Shown here one piece after another: positions 11,188 to 40,398 of a DNA stretch of 59,973 nucleotides (positions within the stretch are counted from its first letter, which is position 1; each line of letters begins with the position of its first letter). This DNA comes from a virus. Taxonomy: Duplodnaviria; Caudoviricetes. A program made the translations under genes and the position numbers. The DNA is taken from IMG/VR virus record IMGVR_UViG_3300017743_000009, positions 1-59,973 of that record. One strand, 5' to 3'. Below the pieces are notes generated by a model. It was not told where the DNA came from, did no database searches, and saw only the letters and a list, made by a program, of their open reading frames with translations.

Positions 11188-11217
11188 TCGGTTCCCTATC
11201 CCCTATATAACTATGAC

Positions 11218-12788: not shown

Positions 12789-12799
12789 ATGGGCTTCTT

Positions 12800-12815: not shown

Positions 12816-12841
12816 TGAGGGTTTCACTGTCCCCCGATCAC

Positions 12842-13045: not shown

Positions 13046-13062
13046 AATATACCTCTAATTAT

Positions 13063-14505: not shown

Positions 14506-14521
14506 TTTTACCTCTTAATCT

Positions 14522-14773
14522 TTATCTAAAAGGAGATGTTTTTCTCTTTACGTCCTTTAGTTTTAAAGCTTTTTTTACGTTTATGTTATTTATACTATTT
14601 AAGTCGTCTACTATCTCTCTTAAAACTTGTACCTCAGCGGTAAGTTTTTGATTCTTTTCTGACAAATCTTCAATTATTGTCTTTTGATTTAATACAAATC
14701 GACTCAATACTTTAAGTTGGACCTCTCCAAACTCATCCGTAAGTATTTTATGTTCCCAAAATTTCCATTTCAT
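14522..14773 (-). CDS. Small coiled-coil protein
   Basis: IEDLSEKNQKLTAEVQVLREIVDDL heptads; TAATG coupling to the upstream gene. Confidence 0.6.
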   Translation of the reverse strand: MKWKFWEHKILTDEFGEVQLKVLSRFVLNQKTIIEDLSEKNQKLTAEVQVLREIVDDLNSINNINVKKALKLKDVKRKTSPFR

Positions 14774-15522
14774 TAATAAGTTCCACCATCCAAATCACTA
14801 AAGTCAACATCATTATTTGTCACTATCATAACTTGACCATTTGATCCAGTTTTAAAATCCATTGTAGTTGAGTTAGCTGAAGCTAATACTGCATTAGCAG
14901 TAAAGCTAGTAACTCCTGTACCACCATCTTTCACTTCCAGAGGCGCTGATAAACTAGTTATAGTTGCATTAACTAAATTAGCATTGCTTAAGGAAGCTCC
15001 GCTAAAACCAGTGTTACCATTATATTTAGCTCCTGTAATAAAGATACCTTTACCAGCAGTCACACCTGAAGGTAAATTAGATCCTATAAAATGAAGTACT
15101 CCAGATTGATAATCAAAGTACCATTCATCACTATTTCCTGAACCTGTTTCGAATAATTGAGTTCCGTTAGAAGCAGGGTTACCAGATCCTGCCGTATCTA
15201 CGTACACCTTTAATTGATAAGTAGCACCAAAAGAAGAAGGTACCCAATTAGAAATATTTGACTTCCATGTACGTCTAGCTGTAGAAGTTACATCTTCAGT
15301 TGTTGATTGTTCTGTATATATTATTAACGGACCTGTATTTGCTGCTGGTTTAGTACTTGGAATGCTTGCAGCATCAGTCCATATTGTTGACGGTTTAATT
15401 ATTAACTCAGAAACAATAGCCTCATTAGGTGCTTTCTTATTTGTATTAGTATCTGTTTTAACTTTACTGAAGCCTATCTTCTTCCAGAGTAAATCAACTT
15501 TTTGTGTATCAGATATTGCCAT
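14773..15522 (-). CDS. Virion structural / fibre adaptor protein
   Basis: MAISDTQKVDLLWKK N-terminus, EWYFDYQSGVLHF, L.VKDGGTG fibre motif, C-terminal LDGGTY. Confidence 0.65.
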   Translation of the reverse strand: MAISDTQKVDLLWKKIGFSKVKTDTNTNKKAPNEAIVSELIIKPSTIWTDAASIPSTKPAANTGPLIIYTEQSTTEDVTSTARRTWKSNISNWVPSSFGATYQLKVYVDTAGSGNPASNGTQLFETGSGNSDEWYFDYQSGVLHFIGSNLPSGVTAGKGIFITGAKYNGNTGFSGASLSNANLVNATITSLSAPLEVKDGGTGVTSFTANAVLASANSTTMDFKTGSNGQVMIVTNNDVDFSDLDGGTY

Positions 15523-18500
15523 TATGAGATCTCTAATTTAGTTAAACTTTGACCACTGCTTAATCCTACAGATACTAATATTTGATTATTAGTAGATGTA
15601 GATGCATTTTGATCACCTAATGTCATTGTAAAAGAATTATTGTTATAGTTTGTACTTGATTGTATCCTATCTCCAGAAGTAAACGCACATCCATCTGAAC
15701 CATTACCACCAGCTGCAGTATTAGCTCCAGGTGTCCCAGCTCCTGCATATGTATTAGAGGCATCTACCCATCCATTACTATCTGAAGTATCATCAATATT
15801 AGTACCTGGAGCTGCTATATGAAATGAAGCTACAGTTCCAGTTAAAGTAACATTAAAGTTAGCTACGTTAGTTCTTTTAAATGCAAATCTAAAGTATTGA
15901 ACTCCAGACCTACTTGTATTTAGGTTAGGTCCTGCCGGTAAATATCCGGAAGAATAATCAACAACATTATGTGCTAGTGTCCCGTACCTCTGAATCGCTT
16001 CGTCAGTTCCAGCGACAGTAACTGCGCCAGTCCAAGCGTTGTTAACATAATAGTCCACATTATTAGCAAAGGTAGGAGTAGCATTAGTTGAACTAAAATT
16101 AGATAATCTTTTACCGTCTGTGTCATACGTTGCCCCTAAGCTATCTGATACTGGAATGGCATCCTCTCTAACGCCTGATGAGTTGCCATTATATACAGCT
16201 ACTTTTGTATTTGCGTATTGTAAGGTAGAACTTGATCCATTTACATTCTCCATCATCATAGAGAATCCTTCTACTCTTCTCCCGCCACCGTTAACTGCTA
16301 CTTGAAATGTTTCAATACTTACATTAGCTCCAACTCCCGTATTAGCTTTAGGATATCCTGATACTAGAGTTGATGAAGGCAGGATAGAATAATTTTTAGT
16401 TTGCGTGCTAAAGGATGATCCACTATCTCCTTCTATATTAGTACCACTATATATGTTAAATGGTGTAGAATCGTTTTTATAGAATTGACCAGCTACATTA
16501 CTTACTAAAGCTCCAATTACATTTAAGGATGCGTCATTAGTATAGTAAGGTACTCCAGATACATAAGCTAAAGTTCCTGCTGAATTTTGAGTAACGGTAG
16601 TACCGCTAAAATTTAAAACAGGAGTTCCAGTTAAATTATCCTTAGCAAATTCTAATACAGAAGTATTTCCAGTAGTTGAATGACTCAATTTATAAGTATG
16701 AGATCCTGTTGCTAGAGATGATTTATTAATTCTAGCTCTGAAACCAGAATATAATCCAGGTGCATATCTTCTACTTCCTGCAGAAACACTGCCTCCTGTA
16801 TTATTAAAATTATAGAAATCTAATTCGTCAACAACTACTAATGATTGATCAGTACCTGTATTATCACTACTATTAAATGTAATAGTACCTTCTGCTGAAC
16901 CATCAACAATTGCAGATAAGGTTCCAGTACTAGCATCATAAACTACTTGCGAATTTGCTTCACCAGAAGTCTGAATGTTGCCTGATGTTGTGTATCTTGT
17001 TACACTATCTCCAGCTGCAAAAGAACCTTCTGATGTATTATTAATAAATCCTGAAGCTAATCTTGGAGATGATCCAACCGAGCTTGATGTTAAAGATATA
17101 GATTTACCTGATAACCCTTCTGGTGCTGCTATACCAGTATCAAATATTTTTATAGTCTTAGTTGATGAATCAGGTACAGCTGTTGGGTTAGCTGTAGAAT
17201 GGCTATTAATTGAAAGTGTTATTGTGTCTGTTCCAGTACTTGTACCAGCAGTATATGTATGCGTTAATCTCGCACCTTGAGTTCCACCTGCTACTGAAGT
17301 GTTTGATATTGCAGAAGTATCTCCATCGCCCCAGTTAACAAAGAAGGTCGCTACTACATCATTAGCGTTTGTTGTTTCGTTATCTAAATATATTACTTGA
17401 TTGATATTAGCTTCAGTAATTTCTGAGCCACCAGATGCAGCATTAAATATATCAAAGTCAGCACTAGGATCAGATGTATATAATGTTATTAAATCAGTAG
17501 CGGTAAAAGTGGCTGTATTACCTTCACCTAATGCGTTTGTATTTCTAGCTGCTACAACTATATCAAAAGGTGAATTAGTATTGTCTGTATATGTATGTGA
17601 AGGGGTAGCATCTGTAGTATTATTTGTATAGCTACCATCACCCCAAGTTATATCATATCTATTTGCATTACCTACTACATCGATTGTTAAAGTGCTTGTT
17701 AGAGGAGCTCCTCCTACATTACCAGAATTACATGTTACAGAAACATCTCTTACATATGTATTTTGATATACATTAAACATTACTTCATTCATTGAATCTA
17801 TAGCATCAGCTACACTTGTTGTATTAGCTATAGAAGTAACTGCTCCTTCTATATTTCCTGACCCAGATCCATTAGCAAATACTCCATCTGTTGGTGCACC
17901 TATCTGTGTTGTATTTCCTACAGTGCTAATACCACCTACCTGAGTATCTACATAACCTTTAGAAGCTACTTGTGAGTCAGCTACTGGATTAGATGCAATT
18001 GTAATTTGATTTGCATATACATGTTTATAATTATTAGTTGATGAACCTAAATCGTAAGTTACATTATCAGAAGGTATAATACTTGTATTAACAGTAGCAC
18101 CTAAAGATATAACATCTCCTCCATCACCAAGCTGTATACTTGAACCTCTTAATATAAAGTCACCGTTAACTGTTAAGTTGTTTGATATAGAAACATCATT
18201 AGCATGAAGCATTCCAGTCAAAGTGGTTACTGTTGAGTTGGCTGCTATTATCTGTGGTTCATGGACTCTTATTGTTGATCCCATACCAGAGTGATTACCA
18301 CAATAATAAAATAGTCTAGTAGGAGCATCCGCTTCTAATGATACTATAGAATATGAGCCTGCCGAACCAGGAGTACCTACATGAGTAATACCAGTTGTAA
18401 ACTCTGAACCACTGCCGTGTGTACCGTCTGCTGTTTCACTAAACTTTAGAGGATGGCTGCTATTAGATGAGTCTGATGTATCGAAATAATATTTTAAACC

Positions 18501-20342: not shown

Positions 20343-21187
20343 ACTGGATTACCTCCTGGACCTGTACCAGGCTGATATTCATCTTCTAAATATAATCCAG
20401 GTGTTTGATTTAATAATCCTCTATTAATAGGATGATGTTTAATAATAGGAGTTAATCCTCCATGAGATCTATTACCCATATAATGATTCCAATTCCATCT
20501 TAACATCTCATGCTTATTATTATTTTCTACTTCTTGTATTTTAAGATCTGGAATTAATTTTTGATGTATCCACCACCAGGTAAATTGATCCCATGCTCGA
20601 TTCTTAAAATAAATTTCAGGATGGTTTTTCCAAAAATCAGGATTAGCATTTATATTTAAATATTCTGTCCACCATAGGTTCATAGCTTTTTGAGCGTTAG
20701 GACGCTTATCATTATTCCACCATAAAAAGAACCCGCCATGATATCTTAAATGTTTATCTACAGCATTATCTCTTATATCTGCTTCACCTTCTTTAGTATA
20801 AATTGCTGTACTTGCTCCAGTATTAGGATCGATAACAGTAAAGGCGCAATCATGATTATCATCTAATAAATCAAAAACTCTTTCTATTTCCTCATCTACT
20901 ATTTCCATATCAGCATCTAAATAGCAAGTCTTTTCAAATGGTGTATGCTGAAGAGCCCATAATTTAGATCTTACACTTATTGGAAAATCTTCACTAACCA
21001 CTTTAACAACTGAATCTAATCTTTCAAAATCTTCTACCCATTCTGGATGGCATGCAACCATAACTTTAGGATCATTATAATAATCTTCTAAACTTTCTAT
21101 ACATTGAATAGCACTATTTTTATAGTGGTTATGCATAGAAGCAACTAATAAAAAACCTTCTTTATGTTTCTGTTCTGTCATAATCAC
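20339..21187 (-). CDS. Glycosyltransferase, GT-A fold (GT8-like)
   Basis: RSKLWALQHTPFEKTCYLDADM (DxD), HGGFFLW, WDQFTWW and terminal IIKHH. The start may be the second Met at 21181. Confidence 0.8.
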   Translation of the reverse strand: MIMTEQKHKEGFLLVASMHNHYKNSAIQCIESLEDYYNDPKVMVACHPEWVEDFERLDSVVKVVSEDFPISVRSKLWALQHTPFEKTCYLDADMEIVDEEIERVFDLLDDNHDCAFTVIDPNTGASTAIYTKEGEADIRDNAVDKHLRYHGGFFLWWNNDKRPNAQKAMNLWWTEYLNINANPDFWKNHPEIYFKNRAWDQFTWWWIHQKLIPDLKIQEVENNNKHEMLRWNWNHYMGNRSHGGLTPIIKHHPINRGLLNQTPGLYLEDEYQPGTGPGGNPV

Positions 21188-21578
21188 TCACTACTGCTGC
21201 ACCATAGACGTATAATTCTGCAAATGTTTTAGCTTTACGAATACGTCTTTTTAACTTTTTATTAGTTGTCTTTTTAATTTCATCGATTTCCATAACTGAT
21301 AATTTTTCAATAAATAGAGCTTCCTGCATTTGTCGTTCTTCATTCTCTTTATGGAATTGTTCTTCAGCTAATTTCTGTTCTCTAAATTGCTTTACGTCCT
21401 CTTCAGACCTTGCAGTAATTTCTTCAATAGAAAATTCTGCTAAAACAGCATCGTAGTTTTCTTTATCTTTGGGATCTATGATAAGCTCTCTACTACCTGT
21501 TTCAGTAATTTCAAGAGCCCTAATTCGTTTTTTTTCTTCTGGGATTTCCCAGAGAGCATTTTTAAATCGGTTTGCCAT
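21162..21578 (-). CDS. Highly charged hypothetical protein (possible fibre chaperone)
   Basis: E/K-rich and helical; RBS GAGG; directly downstream of the 1505-aa repeat protein and overlapping the GT start. Confidence 0.6.
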   Translation of the reverse strand: MANRFKNALWEIPEEKKRIRALEITETGSRELIIDPKDKENYDAVLAEFSIEEITARSEEDVKQFREQKLAEEQFHKENEERQMQEALFIEKLSVMEIDEIKKTTNKKLKRRIRKAKTFAELYVYGAAVVSDYDRTET

Positions 21579-21624: not shown

Positions 21625-21632
21625 TATTTATG
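21625..21632 (-). promoter_or_regulatory. Putative late promoter CATAAATA for the 138-aa/GT/oxygenase cassette
   Basis: NATAAATA box overlapping the TAA of the 1505-aa gene. Confidence 0.55.
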
Positions 21633-24600
21633 CAACTCTTAGCCATAATTTTATAGTAGAGTTATTTGAGGCTGTACCTTGAATAGTATCACCTGCAAAT
21701 TGACCCGTAAACTGAGATGAATAAGTAGATGTAAATTGCGGACCTGTTATTAATCTCGCGAATTGGTCTCCATTATATGATGGCCCTGGAGTCGTTCTAG
21801 CATACCCTACACTATAATTATCTCCTACTACTAACCTTGCAAATTGTCCTCTTGTATATTGAGGGCCAGGTGTAGTTCTAGAATACTGAGAGGTGTATTG
21901 AGGTCCTACTACAAGTCTAGCAAACTGGCCTCTAGTGTATTGTGGTCCAGGTGTAGTTCTAGCATAATTAACAGTGTAGTTTGGTCCAGTCACCAGTCTT
22001 GCATATTGACCGTCTGAGTAATTAGGGCCAGGTGTTGTTCTAGAGTAGCCAACACTATAATTAGGACCCGGTGTTATTCTAGCATATGCTCCATCTGAAT
22101 AATTAGGTCCAGGTGTTGTTCTGGCATAGTTAACTGTATATTGTGGTCCTGGTCTAGCTCTTGTATACTGACCGTCACTGTATGCTGGCCCTGGCGTCGA
22201 CCTAGCATAGTTAACTGTATATTGAGGACCTACTACAAGTCTTGCATATTGTGCAGAATAAATTCTTGTAAACTGTCCTGTATACTGCGCAGTAAACTGT
22301 CTTGTAAAAGATCTACCATAATTTACTGAATATATTCTAGCATATTGTCCTGTATATTGAGCTGTATATTGTCTATTAAATGCCCTTCCATAATTGGCGG
22401 AATATATTCTTGTATATTGTCCTGTATATTGGGCAGTAAATTGTCTGTTAAAGGATCTAGAATATGAAGCTGAAAAAATCCTAGTAAATTGCCTACTATA
22501 TTGTCCGGAATATATTCTAGCAAATGATCTTCCGTATCCTGCTGAGAATATTCTAGTAAATTGTCTGGCATATTGGCCAGCATAACTTCTTGCAAATGCT
22601 CTTCCATAATTAGCGGAATATATTCTGGCATATTGACCTGTGTATTGAGCTGTATATTGTCTATTGAATGATCTACCATAACCAGCTGAAAAAATCCTTG
22701 TAAATTGTCTAGCGTATTGGCCGTTATAAACTCTACCGAACGCTCTTCCGTACCCTGCTGAGTATATTCTTGTAAATTGTCTAGCGTACTGGCCGTTATA
22801 AACTCTACCAAAAGCCCTTCCGTATCCTGCTGAGTATATTCTTGTAAATTGTCTTGCATATTGACCATAATAGACCCTACCAAAAGACCTACCATACCCG
22901 GCTGAAAAGATTCTAGTAAACTGTCTTGCATATTGACCATAGTATACTCTACCAAAAGCTCTTCCGTATCCAGCTGAAAAGATTCTAGTAAATTGTCTTG
23001 CGTATTGACCATAGTATACTCTACCATAGTTAACTGCATAGTTAGGTCCTGGTCTTGATCTACCATAGTTACCATAATAGATTCTACCATAGTTAACAGT
23101 ATAGCCTACAGCATAGTTAGGACCTGGTCTAGATCTTCCATAGTTACCATAATAGATTCTACCAAACGATCTATTGTATTGGACACCATATGCTGGGCCC
23201 GGTCTTGCTCTATTATATGAACCATAGTACACTCTTCCAAACGATCTATTGTATTGGACACCATATGCTGGTCCAGGTCTAGCTCTATTATATGAACCAT
23301 AGTATACTCTTCCATAGTTTACAGTATAACTTGAAGAATAGTTTGGTCCTGGGCGTGATCTAGTAAAATTTCCTGAGTAAATATTAGCACCACCGGCCTG
23401 TCTATAGTAAGATGGTAATCTAGTAAACCCTTTATACTGACCACCTATAGGAGGGAAGCCACCAGCAGATGCGTAAATATTAGCAGAACGCGTGTAGATA
23501 GTGCCTCTATAATATTGACTGCCGCCGTCTTGGTCCGGGGGTGGAAAGAATGTTGGAGGTCCAAAATAAGGTTCTACTGGAGCACCATAACCGGTTCCAT
23601 ATCCACCTTCAAGCCTATCAGAATTATAATTAAAGTCAAATGCTAATCGTGAAAAATTAGCTCCAGCATAACTACCATAGTAAACTCTTCCAAAAGATCT
23701 CGAATAACTTACACCGTAAGCTGGACCTGGTCTTGATCTACCATAGTTACCATAATATACTCTACCATAGTTAACAGTGTATCCTACGGCATAGTTAGGG
23801 CCTGGTCTAGATCTTCCATAGTTACCATAATAGATTCTACCATAGTTAACAGTATACCCTACAGCATAGTTAGGGCCTGGTCTTGCTCTATTATATGAAC
23901 CGTAGTATATTCTTCCAAACGATCTGCTATACTGTACACCGTAAGCAGGTCCTGGTCTAGCTCTATTATATGAGCCAGTGTATACTCTACCATAATTGAC
24001 TGCGTACGCAGGTCCTGGTCTTGATCTTGTATATTGTCCATCACTATAATTAGGACCTGGTGTTATTCTGGCATAGTTAACTGTGTAATTAGGACCCGGT
24101 CTTGATCTTGTATACGACCCGTCCGAATAATTAGGCCCCGGAGTTGTTCTAGCGTAGTTAACTGTGTAGTTGGGACCAGGTCTTGATCTTGTATATTGTC
24201 CATCACTATAATTAGGTCCCGGAGTTGTTCTAGCATAGTTAACAGTATAATTAGGTCCTGGTCTTGATCTTGTGTATTGCCCATCACTGTAATTAGGACC
24301 AGGTGTAGTTCTAGCGTAGTTTACAGTATAATTAGGACCCGGTCTTGATCTTGTGTATGACCCATCTGAGTAATTAGGTCCAGGTGTAGTTCTTGCATAG
24401 TTAACTGTGTAGTTAGGCCCTGTAATTAATCTTGCAAATTGACCTCTAGTATACTGAGGACCTGGTGTTATTCTGGCATAGTTAACTGTATAGTTAGGAC
24501 CAGGTCTAGCTCTTGTATATGACCCGTCTGAATAATTAGGACCTGGAGTTGATCTTGCATAGTTAACAGTGTAATTAGGTCCAGGTGTTATTCTAGCATA

Positions 24601-26145
24601 GTTACCATCTGAGTAAGCTGGTCCTGGAGTTGCTCTTGAATATCCTGCAGAGTAATTAGGACCGACTACTAATCTGGCAAATTGACCTCTTGTGTATTGA
24701 GGTCCTGGAGTTGTTCTTGCATAGTTAACTGTATAGTTAGGTCCTGTAATTAATCTAGCAAATTGTCCTCTTGTGTATTGAGGTCCTGGAGTTATTCTTG
24801 CATAGTTGGCAGTATATTGGCTACCTACTACTAGTCTTGCAAATTGACCTCTTGTGTATTGAGGTCCTGGAGTAGTTCTAGAATAGCCTGATGTATATTG
24901 TCTAGTAAATTGTCTACCATATCCTGCAGAGAAAATTCTTGTAAATTGTCTAGCGTATTGGCCAGCATAACTTCTTGCAAACTGTCTTCCATATCCTGCT
25001 GAGAATATTCTAGTAAACTGTCTAGAATAATCGCCAGTAAATATTCTTGCAAATGCTCTTGTATATTGTGCAGAGAATATTCTAGTAAACTGTCTTGCGT
25101 AGTCACCGGTAAATTGTCTATTAAAAGCTCTTCCATAAGCTGCAGAGTATATTCTAGTAAACTGGCCTGTGTATTGAGAAGTATATTGCCTTGTAAACTG
25201 TCTACCGTATTGAGCAGAATATATCCTGGTGAACTGTCCAGTATATTGAGATGTAAATTGTCTATTAAAAGACCTAGTATATTGAGCTGTAAATGACCTA
25301 GCAAACTGTCTTGTATATTGAGCTGAGAATTGTCTAGTAAACTGTCTACTAAAGTTTCCAGTAAACTGATTAGAGTATTGTTGAGAAGTATTATCAGCTA
25401 CCTGATCGATTAGACTATCACTAACTTGTAACCATGTACCAGTTCCTGGAGCACTTACTTGTAGTTTATAAGTACCAACACCAGTAGCTACAATTCTATT
25501 TCTTAATCTTTGAGTTAATGATTTAATTTCAGCAGTAGACATCTGCTTAATAAGAGATCCATCTAACTTAACAGTAGGTATATTAGTATAACTTATTCCA
25601 TCATCTGTTTTACGATATAAATTATATGTTTGATTTGTTCCTGCATTATGAGTAATTGTATCAGTAACGGTCGCTTTGGTAGCCCAAGTCCCTCCAGAAG
25701 GTGCTGCGGTACCAAAATAATACTGCCCCGTAGCATAATTGGAAGTATTAGCTATTTTATCTAAGGCATATTTAATAATTGAATTATTTAAATCTGTATC
25801 TGTTTGTTCTTTTACTGAAGAACTAGAATAGCCTAACGGTCTTACTAAACCTGATTCAGATATAGCAGTAACATTTTGATAGAAGGTAGTTGTTACAGTA
25901 TTAGTAGATCCGGTTGCAGGATGAGTACCAATAGATTCTGTTCTTCTTGTATCAACGAAAGATCCTATAGAAGTTCCTGTAGTAATATTAAGATCACCTG
26001 TTACTACATTACTAGAGGCAAAATCTTCAAGTACAATATTAGTGACATAATCCATTTCTGCATTAGTCATTTCCTGCAGACCTGAGAAGTTAGTTGAGTT
26101 TACACTCGAACCACTACTAACTTTTATTTTTAATGGATTACTCAA
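21628..26145 (-). CDS. Giant aromatic/Arg tetrapeptide-repeat protein (predicted beta-hairpin fibre), 1505 aa, TTG start
   Basis: About 255-aa globular N-region, then about 1230 aa of [FY]xxx and [FY]xRxxPGPx repeats around a unique centre; ends KLWLRVA; paralogous to 26185..28653. Confidence 0.85.
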   Translation of the reverse strand: MSNPLKIKVSSGSSVNSTNFSGLQEMTNAEMDYVTNIVLEDFASSNVVTGDLNITTGTSIGSFVDTRRTESIGTHPATGSTNTVTTTFYQNVTAISESGLVRPLGYSSSSVKEQTDTDLNNSIIKYALDKIANTSNYATGQYYFGTAAPSGGTWATKATVTDTITHNAGTNQTYNLYRKTDDGISYTNIPTVKLDGSLIKQMSTAEIKSLTQRLRNRIVATGVGTYKLQVSAPGTGTWLQVSDSLIDQVADNTSQQYSNQFTGNFSRQFTRQFSAQYTRQFARSFTAQYTRSFNRQFTSQYTGQFTRIYSAQYGRQFTRQYTSQYTGQFTRIYSAAYGRAFNRQFTGDYARQFTRIFSAQYTRAFARIFTGDYSRQFTRIFSAGYGRQFARSYAGQYARQFTRIFSAGYGRQFTRQYTSGYSRTTPGPQYTRGQFARLVVGSQYTANYARITPGPQYTRGQFARLITGPNYTVNYARTTPGPQYTRGQFARLVVGPNYSAGYSRATPGPAYSDGNYARITPGPNYTVNYARSTPGPNYSDGSYTRARPGPNYTVNYARITPGPQYTRGQFARLITGPNYTVNYARTTPGPNYSDGSYTRSRPGPNYTVNYARTTPGPNYSDGQYTRSRPGPNYTVNYARTTPGPNYSDGQYTRSRPGPNYTVNYARTTPGPNYSDGSYTRSRPGPNYTVNYARITPGPNYSDGQYTRSRPGPAYAVNYGRVYTGSYNRARPGPAYGVQYSRSFGRIYYGSYNRARPGPNYAVGYTVNYGRIYYGNYGRSRPGPNYAVGYTVNYGRVYYGNYGRSRPGPAYGVSYSRSFGRVYYGSYAGANFSRLAFDFNYNSDRLEGGYGTGYGAPVEPYFGPPTFFPPPDQDGGSQYYRGTIYTRSANIYASAGGFPPIGGQYKGFTRLPSYYRQAGGANIYSGNFTRSRPGPNYSSSYTVNYGRVYYGSYNRARPGPAYGVQYNRSFGRVYYGSYNRARPGPAYGVQYNRSFGRIYYGNYGRSRPGPNYAVGYTVNYGRIYYGNYGRSRPGPNYAVNYGRVYYGQYARQFTRIFSAGYGRAFGRVYYGQYARQFTRIFSAGYGRSFGRVYYGQYARQFTRIYSAGYGRAFGRVYNGQYARQFTRIYSAGYGRAFGRVYNGQYARQFTRIFSAGYGRSFNRQYTAQYTGQYARIYSANYGRAFARSYAGQYARQFTRIFSAGYGRSFARIYSGQYSRQFTRIFSASYSRSFNRQFTAQYTGQYTRIYSANYGRAFNRQYTAQYTGQYARIYSVNYGRSFTRQFTAQYTGQFTRIYSAQYARLVVGPQYTVNYARSTPGPAYSDGQYTRARPGPQYTVNYARTTPGPNYSDGAYARITPGPNYSVGYSRTTPGPNYSDGQYARLVTGPNYTVNYARTTPGPQYTRGQFARLVVGPQYTSQYSRTTPGPQYTRGQFARLVVGDNYSVGYARTTPGPSYNGDQFARLITGPQFTSTYSSQFTGQFAGDTIQGTASNNSTIKLWLRVA
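21688..25377 (-). repeat. Mirror-ordered coding repeat array (24-aa, 27-aa and 25-aa super-repeats)
   Basis: Blocks: A 25377-24886, B 24885-23995, C 23994-23671, centre, C' 23367-23029, A' 23028-22249, B' 22248-21688. Confidence 0.9.
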
Positions 26146-26173: not shown

Positions 26174-26189
26174 TATTTATTTATTTATG
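26174..26189 (-). promoter_or_regulatory. Overlapping tandem late-promoter boxes (CATAAATAAATAAATA)
   Basis: Three overlapping NATAAATA matches starting at the stop of the 822-aa gene, upstream of the 1505-aa gene. Confidence 0.6.
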
Positions 26190-28653
26190 CAACTCTTAAC
26201 CATAAGGTCTTAGTAGTAGTTGTAAAACTTCCTGTTACTGTGGCACCAGCATATTGTCTTTCTCTTGACCCTGCGTAATTACTAGTATACTGACCATCAG
26301 TATAGTTGGGCCCTACAATCTCACTAGTATATTGCCCTGTGAACTGTCCACGAGTAAACTGACCTGTATATTGTGGACCGGTTACAATTCTTGTGAATTG
26401 TATAGCGTATTGAGTGCCTCTTGAAAATGCTACTGAGTAATCAGCAGAAAAATTAGCAGTAAATTGTCCCGTGTATTGGGGTCCTGGTGTTGATCTAGTA
26501 TATTGACCATCACTGTAATTTGGACCAGGTGTAGTTCTAGCATATTGCGGACCATTATATTGAGGTCCAGGAGTAGATCTTGAATACTGTGCTCTTATAA
26601 AGTTACCTTGATATTGTGGTCCATCAAACTGTCTTACATAAGTACCATAGCTTCTTGATCCATCATATGTAGATGTATATTGCGGACCATTATATTGAGG
26701 TCCAGGTGTTGATCTATCATAATTAGTTGTATACGAAGCACGAGTATATTGCGGTCCTGGAGTTGCTCTTGCATAAGATGGCCCAGGTGTGGTTCTTGCA
26801 TATTGACCGTCTGAGTAATTAGGTCCAGGTGTTGTTCTATCATAATTAGCAGTATATTGACCATAAAATGTAACTGAATAACCAGGTCCAAATGAATAAC
26901 CTGTGTATGCTGCTCTAATATACTGACGAGAATAAACAACTTGATATGGTGGACTGCCTACATCATTTGATCTAAAATATTGTTGAAGCCTTGAAAAACC
27001 TTTGTATATACCTGATACAGGAGGTAACCCTCCAAGATCACCTGAATATACATTAGAGCTACGGGTGTAAACAAACCCTCTATAATATTGTGTACCATCT
27101 CTATCGGCTGGTGGAAATTGTGTAGGAGGTCCAAAATAGGGCTCTTCTCGCGCATAAGGTTGACCATACCCATTAGTCTCTCCATGGTCAGCATTGTAAC
27201 CAAAAGCTAAACCTGATCTAGCAAATTGAGCTTCATAACCACGATTAAAACTTCCTGTAAATGATCTATCATAAGTTACAGTTATACCTACCCTTGTAAA
27301 TTGCCTACCATACTGAGCAGAATAAATTCTGGTAAACTGTCTTGCATAATCAGCTGAGTAAATTCTTGCATAGTTAGCTGAGTAAATTCTAGTATATTGA
27401 GATCTTATAAATGATCTTCCATATGTTCCAGCATATACTCTTTGGAATTGTCTGGTAAATTGATTGCCTCTGCTATATGTTCCAGCATATGTTTTCGTAT
27501 AAGCTGAGCCATCAAACTGTCTAGTAAATTGGCTATTGTATGGTCTACCGTATTGTGCTGAAAATGTTCTTGCAAACTGCCTTTGATATTGCGCAGTAAA
27601 AACTCTATTAAACTGTCTTGCGTATTGTGCTGAATATATTCTAGTATATTGACCACGAGAAAATTGTGATCCTATAACAGCCCTTGAAAATGATCTTAAA
27701 AATTCTCTAGTAAAATTTCTTGCATACTGTCCAGTATATATTCTAGTAAATTGATTAGCAAATTGTCTGTTAAATTGACCTCTAGTGTATTGAGCTGAAA
27801 ACTGTCTACCAAATTGTCTTGAAAATTGTCTAGAGTAGTTAGCTGAATAAGTACCTGTATATTGTATACTTGAAATTACAGGATTTCTATCAGTAGCAGT
27901 TCCTCTAGCTACCCATGTACCTGTTCCTGGAGCAGATGTTTGAAATTTATAGGTACCAATACCAGTTGCAATAATTCTATTTCTTAGTCTTGAGGTTAAA
28001 TTTTCTAATTCATTATCAGTTTGAACTTTAAGAGTACCATTTACTTGCTTAAGTAACTTTATATCTGATGGTGAGTTATCATAAGAAGTCTTTCTCCATA
28101 GCTTGTAAGTGGTCTTAGAGCTATCATCATTAGCATTATTAGTTATCTCATCATAGAAATTATCTTGTGCTACCCATGTACCAGCAATAGAAGGAGCTGA
28201 TTCACTTATGTAATAAGTCCCTGTACCTGCTGCAGTAGAATTTGCTTTTGCTATATCTGCTAAAGCAAGATCCATTACTACATTTAATTCAGCATCTGAT
28301 ACTACTCTAATATGCCCAGGGTTACCCGTACCGTCATGAGTAATTAAAGGGTGTATTGAACTCTCTGAAGCCGTTGAATTGTTTTGTTTAAATGTATAAG
28401 TGGTTGTTGAAGTAGATCCAGTATAAGGATGTGTTCCAGTTTCGGAAGTAGCAAAATTATCCTCAAATACTCCTACAGAAGTACCTAGTGAATCTATATT
28501 TAGATCACCAGTATTGTCTCCAGCTCCAGACTCAGAAGCGTATAAAGTTAATAATTTTTTTGATAGAAAATCAAGCTCTGCATTAGTAGTTACTTGAACG
28601 CCATTATTGTAAATACCGTTAGCGTGGGTTCGCATTTTGAGAGGATTTGGCAT
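26185..28653 (-). CDS. Shorter paralogue of the aromatic/Arg repeat hairpin fibre, 822 aa
   Basis: M.NPLK start; shared RLRNRI.ATG.GTYK.Q.SAPGTGTW; same central EPYFGPPT.FPP.D.DG..YYRG domain; ends TLWLRVA. Confidence 0.85.
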   Translation of the reverse strand: MPNPLKMRTHANGIYNNGVQVTTNAELDFLSKKLLTLYASESGAGDNTGDLNIDSLGTSVGVFEDNFATSETGTHPYTGSTSTTTYTFKQNNSTASESSIHPLITHDGTGNPGHIRVVSDAELNVVMDLALADIAKANSTAAGTGTYYISESAPSIAGTWVAQDNFYDEITNNANDDSSKTTYKLWRKTSYDNSPSDIKLLKQVNGTLKVQTDNELENLTSRLRNRIIATGIGTYKFQTSAPGTGTWVARGTATDRNPVISSIQYTGTYSANYSRQFSRQFGRQFSAQYTRGQFNRQFANQFTRIYTGQYARNFTREFLRSFSRAVIGSQFSRGQYTRIYSAQYARQFNRVFTAQYQRQFARTFSAQYGRPYNSQFTRQFDGSAYTKTYAGTYSRGNQFTRQFQRVYAGTYGRSFIRSQYTRIYSANYARIYSADYARQFTRIYSAQYGRQFTRVGITVTYDRSFTGSFNRGYEAQFARSGLAFGYNADHGETNGYGQPYAREEPYFGPPTQFPPADRDGTQYYRGFVYTRSSNVYSGDLGGLPPVSGIYKGFSRLQQYFRSNDVGSPPYQVVYSRQYIRAAYTGYSFGPGYSVTFYGQYTANYDRTTPGPNYSDGQYARTTPGPSYARATPGPQYTRASYTTNYDRSTPGPQYNGPQYTSTYDGSRSYGTYVRQFDGPQYQGNFIRAQYSRSTPGPQYNGPQYARTTPGPNYSDGQYTRSTPGPQYTGQFTANFSADYSVAFSRGTQYAIQFTRIVTGPQYTGQFTRGQFTGQYTSEIVGPNYTDGQYTSNYAGSRERQYAGATVTGSFTTTTKTLWLRVA

Positions 28654-33933: not shown

Positions 33934-36900
33934 CTATTTCAAGTGCTCTCTACTAGCACTTGTATGACGTGTCTTACCACCGCCGCCACCGGTTATAGCA
34001 TCTGCTGCCTTAGATCCGGTACCAGTAGTTGATTCACCACCTTCTGTTAAAATTATAATATCGTTATTTGTGTATGGATAGTAAGCTGTATTACTTGTAT
34101 CCTGACCACCAGTATCTGGTAATAGAAGGTTTTCATGATAGTATTCATCCCACCACCAGTTATAAGCATAGCTGTTAGTAATTGTGATATCAATATCTAC
34201 ATCAATAGTTTGTTCTTCAAAAGTAGACTCAGATGAACTAATATCAAAAGTAGGTTGCCTTGTAGTTACAGTTATACTCTCTTTTTCCACGCTATAGTTA
34301 TATGCATTATAAGTATCAGAAGCTGTTGAGGTAGCTGAACTTAAATTAGTTAATGAATTAACATCTGCTATAACTAATTGCCTATCCCCTACTAAGAATG
34401 TTTCTTTAGGTAAATCAAAGAGTGCTTTTAATACTCCATACTCATCAGTCGTGACTGCATCTCCGTAATCACCAAATCGATATACGTATTTAGGTTTATC
34501 TAATAACGTATATGTAGGTAGAGAAATAGCAGCAATACTTCCAGGTGCTACGTTAGCATTAATATCAGTATTATCAAAATAGAAATAATGCTGTGTATCT
34601 GGTCTTAAACCAGTAGCTATTACTCTTATTCTTTTAGGTCTCATAAATGGTGAGAATGAAACATCAGTAACAAAATCGCCAACTGGTGAGGTTGAATTTT
34701 CATACCCCATAGAAAGTTGCTGAGTAGTTTTTAAATATGTGTCTGTAGTTGCCGTTGTTGTGGTTGTTACAGCTGTCTCTGTAGTTATACTGTAAGGATT
34801 ATAATACTTACCACCCCACCAGTCTCCATGATAGCCTCCATAGTAACCACCATAACTTCCATAGTAATTATTCCAGGCATTGTAACCACCGTAACCCCAG
34901 TAACCATAATGCTTGAAGGTAGTATCTGTAGTTACTTCAGTCTCTGATTGAACATCTGTTGAAGTACCAATCTTTTCTATATTAGTTCTGGTTAATGGGT
35001 AAAACTCATTAAGGTTATCTAAAAGGTCATTCATACCTGCTGAACTATCAACAAATATATCTTTAGTTCCTACGACAGTTTCATCATAACCAGAATCATA
35101 AGTTGGGTTCATTTTAATTTTACCCTTAAACTTAAAGAAACTTTCTGTACATGGTCTGTGATTTGTAGCTACTCTTTGCTCCATTATAATTGATTCTGTA
35201 GCGCTCATAACATATGCACCGTCTAACTCAATTACATTATTAGTGTTAGCTACAATTAAATCAATATCTTCTTTTCTAAATCTAGGAACAAATTCAGTAG
35301 CAGTAGGATCTATACCTATACTAAACTCTCTGTTGTCTACATCAGAAGTATTAAAGTCAGTAGCTGGATCTACTAAAATACCATTTTTAAATCTGTCATT
35401 ACCATTTGAATCAGTAATAGCCATATTTTGAGTTTTTTGCTCAAGCATTGAAAGCGTAGTATAATATTCTAAATTTTTAAGACGTTTTTCAAATTTACCA
35501 ATCTCTTTCATTGTATAACGTCTAATATTTTCTGGAGTAATAGATATTGATTCGTTTCGTCTTGAAGTACCTCTTGCTTCTTTAGATGTTAGAGAAGGAA
35601 AAGGAGGAACAACTATTGTACCAAGATTTAATGCACCTGGCATATCTTGAGGAGGAACAGGTCTTGAAGAAGGTGTACCTCTTTTAGTTGTTAAATACCC
35701 TTGCTCATTAAGAGCTATTTTATCTATTCTACCTAAGTAGTAGTTAAAATCAGTCTCAAATATTTGATTAGGAGCTGCAGTGAAGTGCTCTATGCTTCCA
35801 AAAGATTCTGTTTCAGCCGGGTTTGTAGATGCACCGCTTGCTGTAGAAGCAACATTTGCTGTATTAGCAACTTGTGGTCTAACATCAATTAAATTTCTTA
35901 GATCCCCTCTTAATCCATTAGGGCTCTCGTATACTGGAATCTCTGTAATAGGTAAATCATCAGTTCCATTAGTATCTTTAAAACTTGAAATAGAATAAAA
36001 TCCTTTACCATCTGCTGGTGAGTCAGCCTGCATAACTGTTGCTTTAACTAATATTCTATTTGAGGTGGTAAGATTAGTTCCTGATTTAACACTTAACTTA
36101 GATAGCCCGTAATGAGTTTCAAATACGTTCTTTTCTAACTCATACCCTGATTTATTATCTGGATTGCTTTCACTAAAATTAGTACCTACATAAACATTAT
36201 CAATAGATACAACATCTGGTAAACCTAAACTATATGGACCATTATTTGTAGTACCATGGGTGTTACAATTTATTTTTATGAATACTTGTTTCTTAGTCTT
36301 TTTAATAGGTGCAACATTTGTTTTCTTTTCATTATGTACTACAACAAAGGATGTACTTGTTATAGGGCTTCCTACTGCACCTGATAAGTTAATTGTAGCT
36401 GAGCTACCAGAAACTGTTATAGCAACATCATCAAGATTAATAGGTACATTATTAGCAAGTCCACCATGTGAGCCACCACCCAGAGTTGGATAAATTACCC
36501 AGTCTTTCTTTTGACTATTAGATAAAGTTCCTGAATAAGGAAATACACCTGTTACTGCACTTACAGTAAATGTATTAGAAGTAGCAGTAGTTTGTTGCTG
36601 AGTTCTAAAAATAAAATTAGAACCTGAAGTTGATTTAACTGAGGGACTAGGTATTGCAAAAACACCAGGTAGTAAATTTTTCTCTTTAATGACTGCTCTA
36701 GAATTTTCTAATACAACATCACCAGTACCTTTGTTATTTAAATGTACTGATCTAGTATTCCTAAATGCTTTACCAGCACTCATTTTAATATTAAATATGT
36801 ATAGTTTATATTGAGCTTTAGCTGTACCCTGTACTCCATCGTTATACTCAAATGCTCTTACACTTGCTGTACCTATTTGATTACCAGGAGCAACACCTAA

Positions 36901-38136
36901 GTTATCTCCATCACTAACAGAAGTACCAGCAGTGTCTCTTAATGATACTGTAGCTACTGTATTAGCAGCAAATGATCCTACTACTTGATCAAGCACCAAA
37001 TAGTTACCCATATTAAAGGTAATATATTCTCCTGTTGCGCTTGCAGATGCTGATGCTTTTTGAATAGCTATTCTAGTAGTATTAAATTGTTCTTGTCTTC
37101 TTCCATTTACATAATGAAGACCAGGTCCGATTAATAAATTAAAGTGAGAACTATTAGCAGTTTCAGCTTGCATTTCATTTACTTTAACTGTATAGTTGCC
37201 TGATTCTTCAAATGTTCTTGAAGCCATTTCATCATTAATAACATTATATTGTGTAGTTAATTTTTTAGATATGGGTAATCCATTCTGAAAATCCATAACT
37301 GCAAGGAAGTTAGCATTTGATCTTGCGTCTTGAGTAGGTATTGCTGTAAGGAATGGATTTAATTTTAATCTATCTGCGCCAGGAGCGTTCTCATTATTAT
37401 ATCCTGAAGCGTTATCTAATAATGTTGTATCACTATCTGAAGTAACTATTGATTCAGCTACATCAAAACCAATTGATACATTATCTGGTTTATTAGAATA
37501 TTTAGAAGCTACTACAGTATTAGATGATACTCTTAAAAAATGTCCTTTTGAATAAACAATACCTTCTGAAACTTTAACTGCATAACCTTGGCCAACAGCT
37601 GTAGCAGAATCAGTAACTTCTGAACCTGCAATAGTTAATGTAGTATTATTATATAATGACCCGCTATCGAAAGATGTGTTACTATGTACTTCTACTGTTT
37701 CTGTTGTAGTAAATGTCTTAGCACTACTTACCCCTGTGGTTAGGTAATCAATATATAGAGTAGTTAAGTTAGGGTCCTGAGATACAAGACCGTCTGCGTA
37801 TGCTACAATTTGAGCTGTTACATTTGAAACTGTACCTTTGGCATATAAGGTTAGATATGTAGATGGTGCAACTGGTTGTCCATCAACCTGCAGATCAGAA
37901 ACTTTAACATAATCAAAAGCTGGGTCAAGAGTAATAGAACAACCTTCAATAATTGTTCCTTCTTTATAGATATTATTACCAAACCTCTCTACTTGGTTTT
38001 GTAATATAGTTTGAAGCTGAGTAAGTTCCCTTGCTTGTAATGCTACGGCTGGTTTAAAAAGTACTCTCTGGAACTTTTTATCTTCATCGTAATCATCGTA
38101 ATATGGACTTACGTTGAAATTTGTATCTAAACTCAT
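33934..38136 (-). CDS. DUF4815/VrlC-like large virion (baseplate-peripheral) protein, N-terminal part
   Basis: NFNVSPYYDDY, RVLFKP..ALQARELTQLQTILQNQVERFG, APGADRLK, RTFEESGNY, RYTMKEIG..EKR..NLEYYT.LS.LE, RFKNG..VD. Confidence 0.88.
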   Translation of the reverse strand: MSLDTNFNVSPYYDDYDEDKKFQRVLFKPAVALQARELTQLQTILQNQVERFGNNIYKEGTIIEGCSITLDPAFDYVKVSDLQVDGQPVAPSTYLTLYAKGTVSNVTAQIVAYADGLVSQDPNLTTLYIDYLTTGVSSAKTFTTTETVEVHSNTSFDSGSLYNNTTLTIAGSEVTDSATAVGQGYAVKVSEGIVYSKGHFLRVSSNTVVASKYSNKPDNVSIGFDVAESIVTSDSDTTLLDNASGYNNENAPGADRLKLNPFLTAIPTQDARSNANFLAVMDFQNGLPISKKLTTQYNVINDEMASRTFEESGNYTVKVNEMQAETANSSHFNLLIGPGLHYVNGRRQEQFNTTRIAIQKASASASATGEYITFNMGNYLVLDQVVGSFAANTVATVSLRDTAGTSVSDGDNLGVAPGNQIGTASVRAFEYNDGVQGTAKAQYKLYIFNIKMSAGKAFRNTRSVHLNNKGTGDVVLENSRAVIKEKNLLPGVFAIPSPSVKSTSGSNFIFRTQQQTTATSNTFTVSAVTGVFPYSGTLSNSQKKDWVIYPTLGGGSHGGLANNVPINLDDVAITVSGSSATINLSGAVGSPITSTSFVVVHNEKKTNVAPIKKTKKQVFIKINCNTHGTTNNGPYSLGLPDVVSIDNVYVGTNFSESNPDNKSGYELEKNVFETHYGLSKLSVKSGTNLTTSNRILVKATVMQADSPADGKGFYSISSFKDTNGTDDLPITEIPVYESPNGLRGDLRNLIDVRPQVANTANVASTASGASTNPAETESFGSIEHFTAAPNQIFETDFNYYLGRIDKIALNEQGYLTTKRGTPSSRPVPPQDMPGALNLGTIVVPPFPSLTSKEARGTSRRNESISITPENIRRYTMKEIGKFEKRLKNLEYYTTLSMLEQKTQNMAITDSNGNDRFKNGILVDPATDFNTSDVDNREFSIGIDPTATEFVPRFRKEDIDLIVANTNNVIELDGAYVMSATESIIMEQRVATNHRPCTESFFKFKGKIKMNPTYDSGYDETVVGTKDIFVDSSAGMNDLLDNLNEFYPLTRTNIEKIGTSTDVQSETEVTTDTTFKHYGYWGYGGYNAWNNYYGSYGGYYGGYHGDWWGGKYYNPYSITTETAVTTTTTATTDTYLKTTQQLSMGYENSTSPVGDFVTDVSFSPFMRPKRIRVIATGLRPDTQHYFYFDNTDINANVAPGSIAAISLPTYTLLDKPKYVYRFGDYGDAVTTDEYGVLKALFDLPKETFLVGDRQLVIADVNSLTNLSSATSTASDTYNAYNYSVEKESITVTTRQPTFDISSSESTFEEQTIDVDIDITITNSYAYNWWWDEYYHENLLLPDTGGQDTSNTAYYPYTNNDIIILTEGGESTTGTGSKAADAITGGGGGKTRHTSASREHLK

Positions 38137-38144
38137 CTACTTCC

Positions 38145-40397
38145 CTAAAATTTTAATATTAATTTAAATGTTTCTGTTTGGTTATTATCTCTTGAAACCG
38201 CTGAAATATTTTCTTTATAGATTATTTCTCCTGATCCACTCTTTAATTGTGGTAGGGAAACATCAGTTATTTTAAACTCTGCAGCACTATTAGCTCCTGA
38301 TAAATATTTATCACCCCCAGAGACATCAGACAGTAAGAAGTTATTTCTAACATCAGTTAATTCAATAGATCCATCAGCTGCTCCAGGGTGTGAAAGAACA
38401 AAACCCGAAGCTAAAGATTCACCCTGTGAAACTTTCTCGTCTTCAGATAAACCAGTTCCTTGAGTACCTGAATAAGATACCTCTGATATAAATTTATGTG
38501 TCTGTCTAAATGTAGTAGTGGGCTGTGATACAGCGCTAAGAGTAGCATTACCACCTGTAAAGGTAATTGTCTCGCTTGAGTTAAAATAGCCTCTTATATC
38601 TTTTACAGCAATATCAGATGCCGCTACTGAAATAACAGTAGCAGTCGCGTTACTAGTACTACCTGTTACAACTAGCCCAGAACTTATCGCTGCTGAATTA
38701 GCTGAAAATGTTAGGGTACCGTTTGCAAATAACGGATCTTTTATAAGACCTATTTCCCTAAAATCATTATTAGCAATTAAGGTCCCTGATTCAGTATTAG
38801 ATAATGAAACACTAATACCTATTTTATTACCAAAAAGTTCAGAGAGATTATTTGATCCGTGCCCATTAGGTGGTGATATTACTGCTCGTGCGGCAGCTGT
38901 TGTGGTCAAATAACTGTTTGAAACTGCATTGGTTACAAAACCAGTATTTCCTTGTATTGCTATATTTGCATATGTATAATCAGATCCAACATTTATTACT
39001 TCTACATTAGCTACAACATTAGCATTTAATAAACTATTAACTCGTGCTCTTGCTACAGCTCCTGATCCATCTCCAGTAATTATAACTTGTGGACTGATAG
39101 AAAATTTACTATCTGAAGCTAAGGAATTATCTAATTCAGAAGCAAGTAAGACTCTTTTTTCATTTGCTGTAACTATATATTCATCGATTATACCTATTTG
39201 ACCTGCTCCAGTACCAGATTCAATATAAAAAGATGATCCTTTATAGAAGTCTGTATTAGAAGAAAGTTTATCACCTATCTGAGTTACAGCTGTTATATTA
39301 GATTTAGTAGATGATGTTGTGCCTGTTATTTCATCCGCTGTGTCTATTACCCCACTTATAGATGAGACAGTTAAATGAGTAGAATTAGAATCTATAACAA
39401 CACCATTAGCTGTACCTAAACTGGCTAAAATAGAAGCAGCTGCTGTATTAGAAGCCCCAGTAACTGTAACAGTTGGAGTACCTGAATGACTTTTACCTCT
39501 TGAAGTTAAGTTAACTCCAGTAATAGCTCCATTACTATCAACACTAGAAATACTAGCTGTAGCCACAGCAGTAGCTGACCCGGTTATAGCAATAGTATCT
39601 GATGTAGTAAAACCAGCACCCCCGTCTAATATTCTTAAACCATTTACAAATGAAGTAGTAACTTCCTCTTTAACAAACCCTGAGGTACTACCTACATTAA
39701 GAACGGTACTTGTTGTTCCAGATAAAGAGATTAATTTATTGTCTCCAGCTACACCAAATTGAGTAACAAACCCTTCTGCATAACTTGAGTAATTATTACC
39801 TCCATCAGTAAGCTTAATTACCTGAATAGATCCATCTATAGCATTTGTTATAACATCTGTGTTAGCAATAACTGGTATATAATCATCTGTTGTAAATTTA
39901 TCATATACTGATTCTGGAATTGTATACATATATTTCCATTGATAACCATCAGAAGCAGTTATATAAATTGTATCATTAGCATTTGTTTCTGTTAATGAGG
40001 GCGCTTGAATTGAATTAGCACCATAATTATTATCTATGCATTTGAAGACATTATAATTAGATGTTTCTTGTCTTATTACAAAAAAATCAGTTTCATCTAA
40101 ATGTGCAGTAGTATCATCATACATTGAATAGGCTGTTCCACTTGACCAATCTTTTCTGTTAACCATATGCATAACATCTACATTATCAATCTTTTTACCA
40201 CCAATCATATTTCTATATGATTCATAATGGATAGCATTAACAGACTCCTCAAATGCTGGAGTTACATCCCCGTTAGGAAAAGGTGTGTGCTTACCATAAT
40301 AAAGATACAGTATTGTATTAGCCGGTTCAGTTAATGACTCTTTAAACTGCTCAGCGCTCGAAACTTTAAAATTATTTGTAATAAAACTATGTGCCAT
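38145..40397 (-). CDS. gp8: Baseplate wedge protein, gp8-like, with inserted domains
   Basis: W.SGT.Y.MYDD, NVFKCIDNN, DGYQWKYMYTI, ISPPNGHG, NDFREIGLIKDP, SGEIIYKEN...QTETFKLILKF. Confidence 0.8.
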   Translation of the reverse strand: MAHSFITNNFKVSSAEQFKESLTEPANTILYLYYGKHTPFPNGDVTPAFEESVNAIHYESYRNMIGGKKIDNVDVMHMVNRKDWSSGTAYSMYDDTTAHLDETDFFVIRQETSNYNVFKCIDNNYGANSIQAPSLTETNANDTIYITASDGYQWKYMYTIPESVYDKFTTDDYIPVIANTDVITNAIDGSIQVIKLTDGGNNYSSYAEGFVTQFGVAGDNKLISLSGTTSTVLNVGSTSGFVKEEVTTSFVNGLRILDGGAGFTTSDTIAITGSATAVATASISSVDSNGAITGVNLTSRGKSHSGTPTVTVTGASNTAAASILASLGTANGVVIDSNSTHLTVSSISGVIDTADEITGTTSSTKSNITAVTQIGDKLSSNTDFYKGSSFYIESGTGAGQIGIIDEYIVTANEKRVLLASELDNSLASDSKFSISPQVIITGDGSGAVARARVNSLLNANVVANVEVINVGSDYTYANIAIQGNTGFVTNAVSNSYLTTTAAARAVISPPNGHGSNNLSELFGNKIGISVSLSNTESGTLIANNDFREIGLIKDPLFANGTLTFSANSAAISSGLVVTGSTSNATATVISVAASDIAVKDIRGYFNSSETITFTGGNATLSAVSQPTTTFRQTHKFISEVSYSGTQGTGLSEDEKVSQGESLASGFVLSHPGAADGSIELTDVRNNFLLSDVSGGDKYLSGANSAAEFKITDVSLPQLKSGSGEIIYKENISAVSRDNNQTETFKLILKF

Positions 40398-40398
40398 A

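Follow-up and report, generated by a model that had tools for sequence, protein, structure and literature searches.

In this work, we analysed a 59,973-nt stretch of viral DNA (Duplodnaviria; Caudoviricetes), the whole of IMG/VR record IMGVR_UViG_3300017743_000009 (positions 1 to 59,973) and referred to below as the window, and in particular a minus-strand gene for a protein of 822 amino acids (aa), P0001, and its 1505-aa paralogue, P0002. Both proteins are best explained, with good probability, as hairpin host-recognition fibres of a marine T4-like myophage, in which two arms of short aromatic repeats run out and back in register and a tip lies where the chain reverses. In the proposed arrangement, three modules of about 90 aa would form a globular base, and the hairpin of the third module would be enormously extended. 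The chain would leave the N-terminal (N) domain, run out as about 51 four-residue rungs (134 in P0002), turn in a tip of about 93 aa rich in proline, glycine and aromatic residues, and return antiparallel and in register to end as a ...TLWLRVA strand docked on the N domain. The register would be held by a complementarity code, with an aromatic residue at each slot and one arginine per rung, which would occupy position 3 and face a small residue, Val or Asp. By this code, the two 4-mers opposite a 9-mer YxRx-xPGPx would be one with Arg and then one without; the 5-mer YSDGQ, which lacks Arg, would face YARQ, and YTRGQ, a 5-mer with Arg, would face YTGQ. The arms would form an extended two-stranded ribbon closed by a Tyr/Arg cross-strand zipper, the tip would be the distal host-binding end, and the paralogues would place similar tips at different reaches.

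The gene for P0001 and the parts of its product are listed below, with positions given in the window and confidence taken from an AlphaFold2 (AF2) model as the predicted local distance difference test (pLDDT).

26185..28653, minus strand: intact open reading frame (ORF) of the putative 822-aa hairpin-fibre protein P0001, including the stop codon
27862..28653, minus strand: N-terminal globular domain, residues 1-264 (pLDDT 72-94 over residues 1-260)
27226..27861, minus strand: outgoing arm, residues 265-476, 51 slots, mainly Y/F-x-R-x and Y/F-x-A/G-x 4-mers
26947..27225, minus strand: tip domain, residues 477-569, where the chain reverses; shares 57% identity with the P0002 tip
26254..26946, minus strand: returning arm, residues 570-800, 52 slots, YxRxxPGPx 9-mers and 5-mers (YSDGQ, YNGPQ)
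26185..26253, minus strand: conserved C-terminal tail and strand, residues 801-822 (...TKTLWLRVA), plus stop (pLDDT 75-95)

The arms of P0001 were recognised by the spacing of their aromatic residues. A spacing of four was found in 41 of the 48 intervals between residues 265 and 475, and a mixed spacing (4, 5 or 9) between residues 575 and 805. No such order was seen in residues 1-264 or 476-574, and the tip is non-periodic (EPYFGPP...YYRG...). The period of four is not the three-residue period (G-x-y) of collagen-like or polyproline-II structures. The aromatic spacing and a table of repeat units confirmed what an initial annotation, made by a model from the sequence, had proposed, namely an outgoing arm of mostly A-type 4-mers and a returning arm carrying PGP 9-mers; the nucleotide ranges it gave correspond to residues 265-476 and about 574-803.

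The register was anchored at the base and not at the centre, with Y265, the first repeat after the N domain, set opposite Y801, the start of the C-terminal tail. A slot was defined as one aromatic-to-aromatic unit, so that 3-6 aa counted as one slot and 7-10 aa as two. Under this rule, P0001 pairs unit for unit from base to tip. Rungs 38-44 read YTRI opposite TPGPQ, YSAN opposite YARA, YARI opposite TPGPS, YSAD opposite YART, YARQ opposite YSDGQ, FTRI opposite TPGPN and YSAQ opposite YDRT, which reproduces exactly the facing pairs that had been read from the centre outwards in the initial annotation. All 11 9-mers lie opposite two 4-mers, a count that is non-discriminating because the same holds at shifts -1 and +1; the number of 9-mer versus 9-mer clashes did not discriminate in P0001 either. 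An oriented pattern was scored as well, in which the unit opposite the YxRx half lacks Arg and the unit opposite the xPGPx half carries it. This pattern was present in 9 of the 11 9-mers, and at the 16 other shifts in 0-5 of 10-11. Exactly one Arg was found in 36 of 51 rungs, two in 5 and none in 10. When the units of the return arm were shuffled, the mean number of one-Arg rungs was 27.7 (sd 3.4), and 268 of 20000 shuffles reached 36. The base-anchored shift was the best of 17, with a one-Arg fraction of 0.70 (50 rungs scored) versus at most 0.66 elsewhere. The one-Arg signal in P0001 alone is real but moderate.

The paralogue and its parts are located as follows.

21628..26145, minus strand: gene of the 1505-aa paralogue P0002, TTG start; N domain 1-256, out arm 257-830, tip 831-922, return arm 923-1482, C-terminal strand 1483-1505

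In the case of P0002, the one-Arg signal is overwhelming. Exactly one Arg was found in 126 of 134 rungs and two in none, and the shuffles gave 66.8 ± 6.0, with 0 of 20000 reaching 126. The one-Arg fraction at shift 0 was 0.95 (133 rungs scored), the best of 17 shifts; at the other 16 it was 0.79-0.89 at multiples of 3 slots and 0.29-0.41 elsewhere. The oriented pattern was present in all 44 9-mers of P0002, and at other shifts in 0-1, but in 33-38 at multiples of 3 slots. The 5-mers obeyed the same logic: YSDGx, which has no Arg, stands opposite YARQ or YSRQ in 10 of 10 cases, and the Arg-containing YTRGQ type stands opposite YTGQ in 6 of 6, among them the lone isolated unit of this type in the out arm (565), which faces a return-arm YTGQ. 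In both proteins, Arg occupies position 3 of Y-x-R-x, and facing it is either a unit with Gly, Ala, Val or Asp at that position or the xPGPx half of a 9-mer. The oriented 9-mers (44/44 in P0002, 9/11 in P0001) bear out the earlier proposal of one pairing code for both proteins. The rule is present in P0001, as had been claimed; the further statement that P0001 shows it "independently" is too strong because P0001 and P0002 are paralogues. At the level of sequence, we regard the topology, the register and the code as demonstrated.

The mirror order extends in P0002 to whole blocks of repeats. The out arm begins with A-type units (257-420), continues with B-type units (421-717) and ends with mixed 25-mers; the return arm begins with mixed 25-mers, followed by A-type (1048-1299) and then B-type units (1300-1482). 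Both arms run A then B, and the inner segment with swapped arms that had been described for P0002 is there. Opposing blocks contain 41/41, 68/68 and 24/24 slots by hand count. Block boundaries, copy numbers of tandem arrays and subtypes of units are all mirrored across the tip. The arrays are listed below; the copy numbers of the 81-nt and 72-nt arrays were computed from the spans of overlapping repeat rows.

24010-24886: main array of the P0002 out arm, 81 nt, about 10.8 copies, opposite the 72-nt array
22256-23026: main array of the P0002 return arm, 72 nt, about 10.7 copies, opposite the 81-nt array
24010-24746: higher-order repeat of the out arm, 243 nt x 3.0, 78% matches, residues 467-712
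22378-23026: higher-order repeat of the return arm, 216 nt x 3.0, 76% matches, residues 1040-1256
Flanking the tip: 75-nt arrays, 1.9-2.6 copies in the out arm and 2.3-3.2 copies in the return arm

The 243-nt and 216-nt repeats lie opposite each other, and each copy of either contains 18 slots. They are similarly diverged, which suggests expansions of similar age. The equal slot numbers of the blocks and the matching copy numbers of the arrays agree with the earlier idea of an elongation that preserves the register. The idea of one device in two versions also held: the N domains of P0001 and P0002 are 42% identical, their tips are 57% identical over 87 aa (E 4e-18), and the C-terminal strand is the same. 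Since the tips are so similar, the phage probably displays tips of a related kind at two reaches. Assuming fully extended strands at ~0.33 nm per residue, the fibres would be ~65-70 nm (P0001) and ~175 nm (P0002) long.

A palindrome in the DNA was considered as the cause of the mirror pattern and was rejected, as inverted repeats of only 16-23 nt were found. The mirror therefore lies in the protein, where it is complementary and not repetitive. This result bears on a different view of the arms, in which they form compact beta-solenoid coils of 24-27 aa, or are amyloid-like or disordered low-complexity chains, and the mirror reflects a history of duplication and not contact. We consider this view very improbable. 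The 24-aa and 27-aa higher-order periods of P0002 are typical of solenoid coils, and the low AF2 confidence in the arms would fit it too. Against it, opposing units are complementary and not alike (Arg versus non-Arg, 9-mer versus 4+4), their subtypes covary across the tip, and the DNA palindrome is missing. In P0001 there is no 24- or 27-aa period, the sole tandem DNA repeat of the gene being 24 nt x 2.1 copies. Moreover, 5 rungs per arm, as some family members have, are too few for a solenoid, and insertions and deletions (indels) in homologues are mirrored.

Such mirrored changes were seen in several relatives of P0001. Four of them (P0003-P0006) lack the mutually facing 4-mer YARQ (437) and 5-mer YSDGQ (613); closer to the tip, they have 4 aa and 5 aa extra. 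Relative to P0001, P0020 has 23 and 20 additional aa at 347 and 720, and 4 aa fewer on each side at 318 and 750. The indels of P0010 and P0016 could not be paired across the arms. Among 45 homologues of the Arg type with settable anchors, the base-anchored shift was the best of 17 in 21, with ~2.6 expected by chance. When the distal rungs alone were scored, shift 0 was best in 11 of the 19 homologues listed, with total slots from 73 to 289. Across 105 family members, the slot counts of the two arms, obtained with crude automatic detection of the tip, correlate with r = 0.60. The family spans a ~5-aa loop (P0164, 273 aa), arms of 5 rungs each (P0144, P0210) and arms hundreds of residues long, and its short members have irregular 6-mers at mirrored positions. 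Because the members grade in this way from a loop of ~5 residues to hundreds of residues, the fibre can be regarded as the elaboration of one hairpin, and therefore its two ends must meet.

The origin of this hairpin is indicated by the N domain of P0001. Within it, three modules of about 90 aa stand in tandem (about 1-100, 101-195 and 196-264), each made of a helix, strands and a closing beta hairpin. The comparison by hhalign gave a probability of 98.3% (E 1.2e-14) for modules 2 and 3, 84% (E 7e-6) for modules 1 and 2, and 54% (E 1.3e-4) for modules 1 and 3. The return strands of the first two hairpins are TTYTFKQNN and TTYKLWRKT, and that of module 3 is TKTLWLRVA at the extreme C-terminus; all three are similar to one another. 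From these alignments, the fibre appears to be the hugely lengthened hairpin of module 3. The triplication within one chain suggests a pseudo-threefold base.

The P0001 monomer was modelled with AF2 from a 36-row alignment, and the result was read as pLDDT and strand segments. The C-terminal strand is predicted with high confidence to dock on the N domain. The model has beta segments in the out arm at 247-288, 297-315, 321-332, 339-346 and 389-415, and each of them has a segment in the return arm where the rung table predicts it, at 777-820, 748-763, 730-740, 715-723 and 641-669, respectively. For the 316-aa member P0144, AF2 gave a mean pLDDT of 89 and a predicted template modelling score of 0.82, with long paired strands (238-258 and 286-314) reaching past the globular part.

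Several observations weigh against the hairpin fibre. The structure prediction that had been suggested as a check on P0001 supported the docked C-terminal strand, and left the arms (residues 267-800) below pLDDT 50, with no strands at all in 347-388 or 416-640; the hairpin tip of P0144 is also below 50. The Arg rule fails in 15 of the 51 rungs of P0001, where about 1 in 75 shuffles does as well. Shift 0 is not best in 24 of the 45 homologues, several being off by 1-3 slots, which we attributed to irregular units miscounted by the slot rule. The slot counts of the two arms are within 3 slots in only 34 of the 105 members, with a median difference of 8. Because the two paralogues and the homologues are relatives of one another, the counts cannot be treated as independent events. 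Finally, physical contact between the arms, presence in the virion and binding by the tip are all putative. In sum, covariation and topology, and not any confident three-dimensional model, make the hairpin fibre well supported. The initial observation is confirmed, and its interpretation is partly supported.

The most closely comparable structure is the needle of T4 gp37, a trimer in which iron ions are bound by His-x-His repeats and which is only about 15 nm long. It is six-stranded and antiparallel and ends in a head with a putative receptor-binding site, according to the portion of PMC9659904 that reports the work of Bartual et al. (2010). As in gp37, antiparallel strands would lead the chain of P0001 outwards along the fibre axis and back again, here judged from the mirror register and the complementarity, and a broader distal head would bear the putative receptor-binding site; the phage is T4-like in both cases. 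Unlike gp37, the proteins described here have a 4-residue Tyr/Arg repeat code, arms of 51-134 rungs and a base domain triplicated in a single chain.

This likeness raises the question of the oligomeric state. The same out-and-back topology could be built as a homotrimer, with three hairpins forming a six-stranded needle like that of gp37 or with arms pairing between subunits, and the Tyr/Arg faces serving as the core. Phage fibres are typically trimeric, and the needle of T4 gp37 has six antiparallel strands and a receptor-binding head at its end (PMC9659904). Mirror complementarity fits antiparallel pairing within and between chains equally, and the low pLDDT of the arms in the monomer could reflect the absent oligomeric context. 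We nevertheless find a homotrimer rather unlikely, as the N domain is already triplicated in one chain, which suggests a pseudo-threefold monomer with one of its three hairpins extended. In addition, the arms lack HxH metal-binding repeats; in fact, those of P0001 have no His, the only one in residues 265-800 being in the tip segment YNADHGETNG (units 486-495). There is also no sequence or fold similarity to gp37, since no Pfam family matched at E <= 1 and the best BFVD match to a fragment of T4 protein 37 had an E of 0.9.

With the hairpin fibre as the preferred explanation, a bolder form of it can be put forward tentatively: each protein may be a single-chain beta ribbon of two strands with a length of tens to hundreds of nm, grown from one hairpin of a pseudo-threefold base, held by a cross-strand zipper of Tyr/Phe pairs alternating with one Arg per rung and tunable in length by matched duplications, so that marine myophages would carry two "fishing lines" for host capture, unequal in reach but with related tips. 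The OspA central sheet, the SasG/Aap rods and the tryptophan-zipper peptides have an elongated beta structure that lacks a conventional hydrophobic core and is stabilised by cross-strand aromatic ladders, and they show that a thin monomeric beta rod is physically possible. Compared with the fibre proteins, they are much shorter and not built of 4-residue repeats. To our knowledge, none of them is a viral fibre or has Arg/non-Arg complementarity or PGP bulges.

The function of the fibres was considered on the basis of gene context. The record has a G+C content of 31-38% and a completeness of ~34% as estimated by CheckV. Upstream of the fibre genes lie the following genes.

38145-43686, same strand as the fibre genes: baseplate wedge genes (PHROG matches)
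33934-38136, minus strand: DUF4815 gene, 1400 aa (DUF4815 E 8.6e-60; matches PHROG 358)

We take the DUF4815 gene to be VrlC-like. The same strand also carries, upstream, a 682-aa gene and another of 987 aa that matches a tail-fibre PHROG weakly. Among phages, the wedge protein has its best relatives in phiM12-like, Cr30, Pelagibacter and Synechococcus T4-like phages. In pelagimyophages and cyanomyophages, a "host recognition cluster" lies between VrlC and gp14, with tail fibres downstream of VrlC, as stated in an excerpt of PMC7029224. Both fibre genes occupy this position, and the DUF4815 gene marks the start of the cluster. P0001 and P0002 are encoded, as tail fibres generally are, within the host-recognition module of the structural operon.

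The two genes are separated by 39 nt, P0002 being downstream of P0001. A sequence resembling a ribosome-binding site, GAGGGGAGGG, precedes the ATG of P0001, and AAGGA sits 10 nt 5' of the TTG of P0002. Directly downstream of P0002, on the minus strand, a 138-aa ORF (21162-21578) gave no family match in Pfam or PHROGs; by its position, it could be a fibre chaperone. The fibre genes also contain ORFs of 81-255 aa in other frames on the minus strand (26634-26939, 26958-27203, 27405-27656, 22323-23090 and 24831-25304), which the repetitive coding sequence most likely generates as by-products.

Some relatives carry other domains between or after similar arms. P0079 (930 aa) and P0237 (951 aa) lack the N domain of the family and have arrays of 4-residue aromatic repeats flanking an irregular middle. 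At their C-termini, the Gp38 adhesin domain PF05268 was found with 32.7 and 38.3 bits, respectively, versus a cut-off of 25; P0001 and P0002 gave no match to PF05268 above the gathering score. P0100, P0112 and P0139 (1463-1578 aa) have two 4-mer arms of about 63-103 slots each around a non-repetitive centre of 500-670 aa, for which Pfam gave no match; they resemble a stalk topped by a large head domain.

Host recognition with the tip at the distal end would be the most likely role, to judge by the gene neighbourhood, the fibre-like architecture, the variability of the tip across phages and the occurrence of similar arms fused to Gp38. The proteins might instead be hairpin fibres that do not bind a receptor, such as a whisker, a decoration of the capsid or neck, an environmental sensor, or an assembly scaffold or ruler. 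Searches of Pfam and NCBIfam detected no adhesin, lectin or enzyme domain in the tip, the tips of the paralogues (57%) are more identical than their N domains (42%), and the whole family is of unknown function (PHROG 20647), all of which would fit such a role. We consider it unlikely in view of the position of the gene among baseplate, VrlC-like and other fibre-like genes. Furthermore, among homologues from other phages, conservation is lowest in the tip region, as judged from the alignment consensus, and the same 4-mer repeat arms are fused to the Gp38 adhesin domain in P0079 and P0237.

Database searches linked P0001 and P0002 to a large family. The family comprises 442 clusters (clustered at 50% identity) at E <= 0.001 among 1.84 billion representatives, and a word-index search gave 86 matches to it. 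In IMG/VR, 122 of 159 pattern-matched stretches encode a relative. The C-terminal motif (...LW.R..) is present in 186 of 220 family proteins, the remainder being mostly fragments; P0001 itself has the N domain, the periodic aromatic arms and the C-terminal motif of the family. In 42 of 77 IMG/VR loci, some of the others being cut by contig ends, two family genes stand in tandem on the same strand, and the two-gene arrangement is therefore conserved. The lengths within such pairs vary (for example 812/1278, 1024/456 and 1104/847 aa), and in some of them the second gene is the shorter one. A search with P0002 gave no relative of comparable length above 40% identity, the best match being P0028 (898 aa).

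Pfam (none at E <= 1), NCBIfam and PHROGs contained no family for P0001; PHROG 20647 matched residues 248-415 of P0002 (E 1.7e-10) and did not match P0001. The N domain, searched by sequence in the PDB, produced a chance match alone (E 0.23). Foldseek with the full AF2 model of P0001, which is mostly of low confidence, found nothing in the PDB (best E 0.7), and with the pLDDT-89 model of P0144 no match at E <= 0.001 in the PDB (to April 2026) or BFVD. The ESM Atlas gave viral hypothetical clusters only, at 0.80-0.82, which is below the meaningful level. A full-text literature search, with most subscription journals outside its coverage, found no description of the family. The family is widespread in marine phages and, in the literature covered, was not previously described.

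In the INPHARED collection, C48C1 (OQ984149, Kyanoviridae) was the only phage that encodes a relative, a hypothetical protein of 3347 aa. This protein shares with P0001 the N domain (27.5-28% identity), the repeat arms and the C-terminal ...TLYVRVA strand. Unlike P0001, it has several globular inserts separated by short repeat arrays. In the product of this gene (7983-18026), 8-mers of the RxRxS type alternate with 4-mers, and the annotation "tail assembly chaperone" is given to a gene immediately upstream.

In T4-like phages that infect abundant marine bacteria, the host-recognition clusters are large and their fibre proteins mostly unannotated. The family described here is common in these clusters, usually as tandem gene pairs, and has no relative in Pfam, NCBIfam, the PDB or BFVD. 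Its readable pairing code makes the length of the fibre, the register and the location of the probable host-binding tip directly testable. The lengthening of a hairpin fibre would need matched changes at two distant sites of the gene, which can also be tested through the code, and the code is simple enough to interest designers of rigid nanofibres with programmable length. If the bolder form of the proposal is true, these proteins would represent a new fibrous architecture, the length of which would be freely tunable by matched tandem duplications in both arms.

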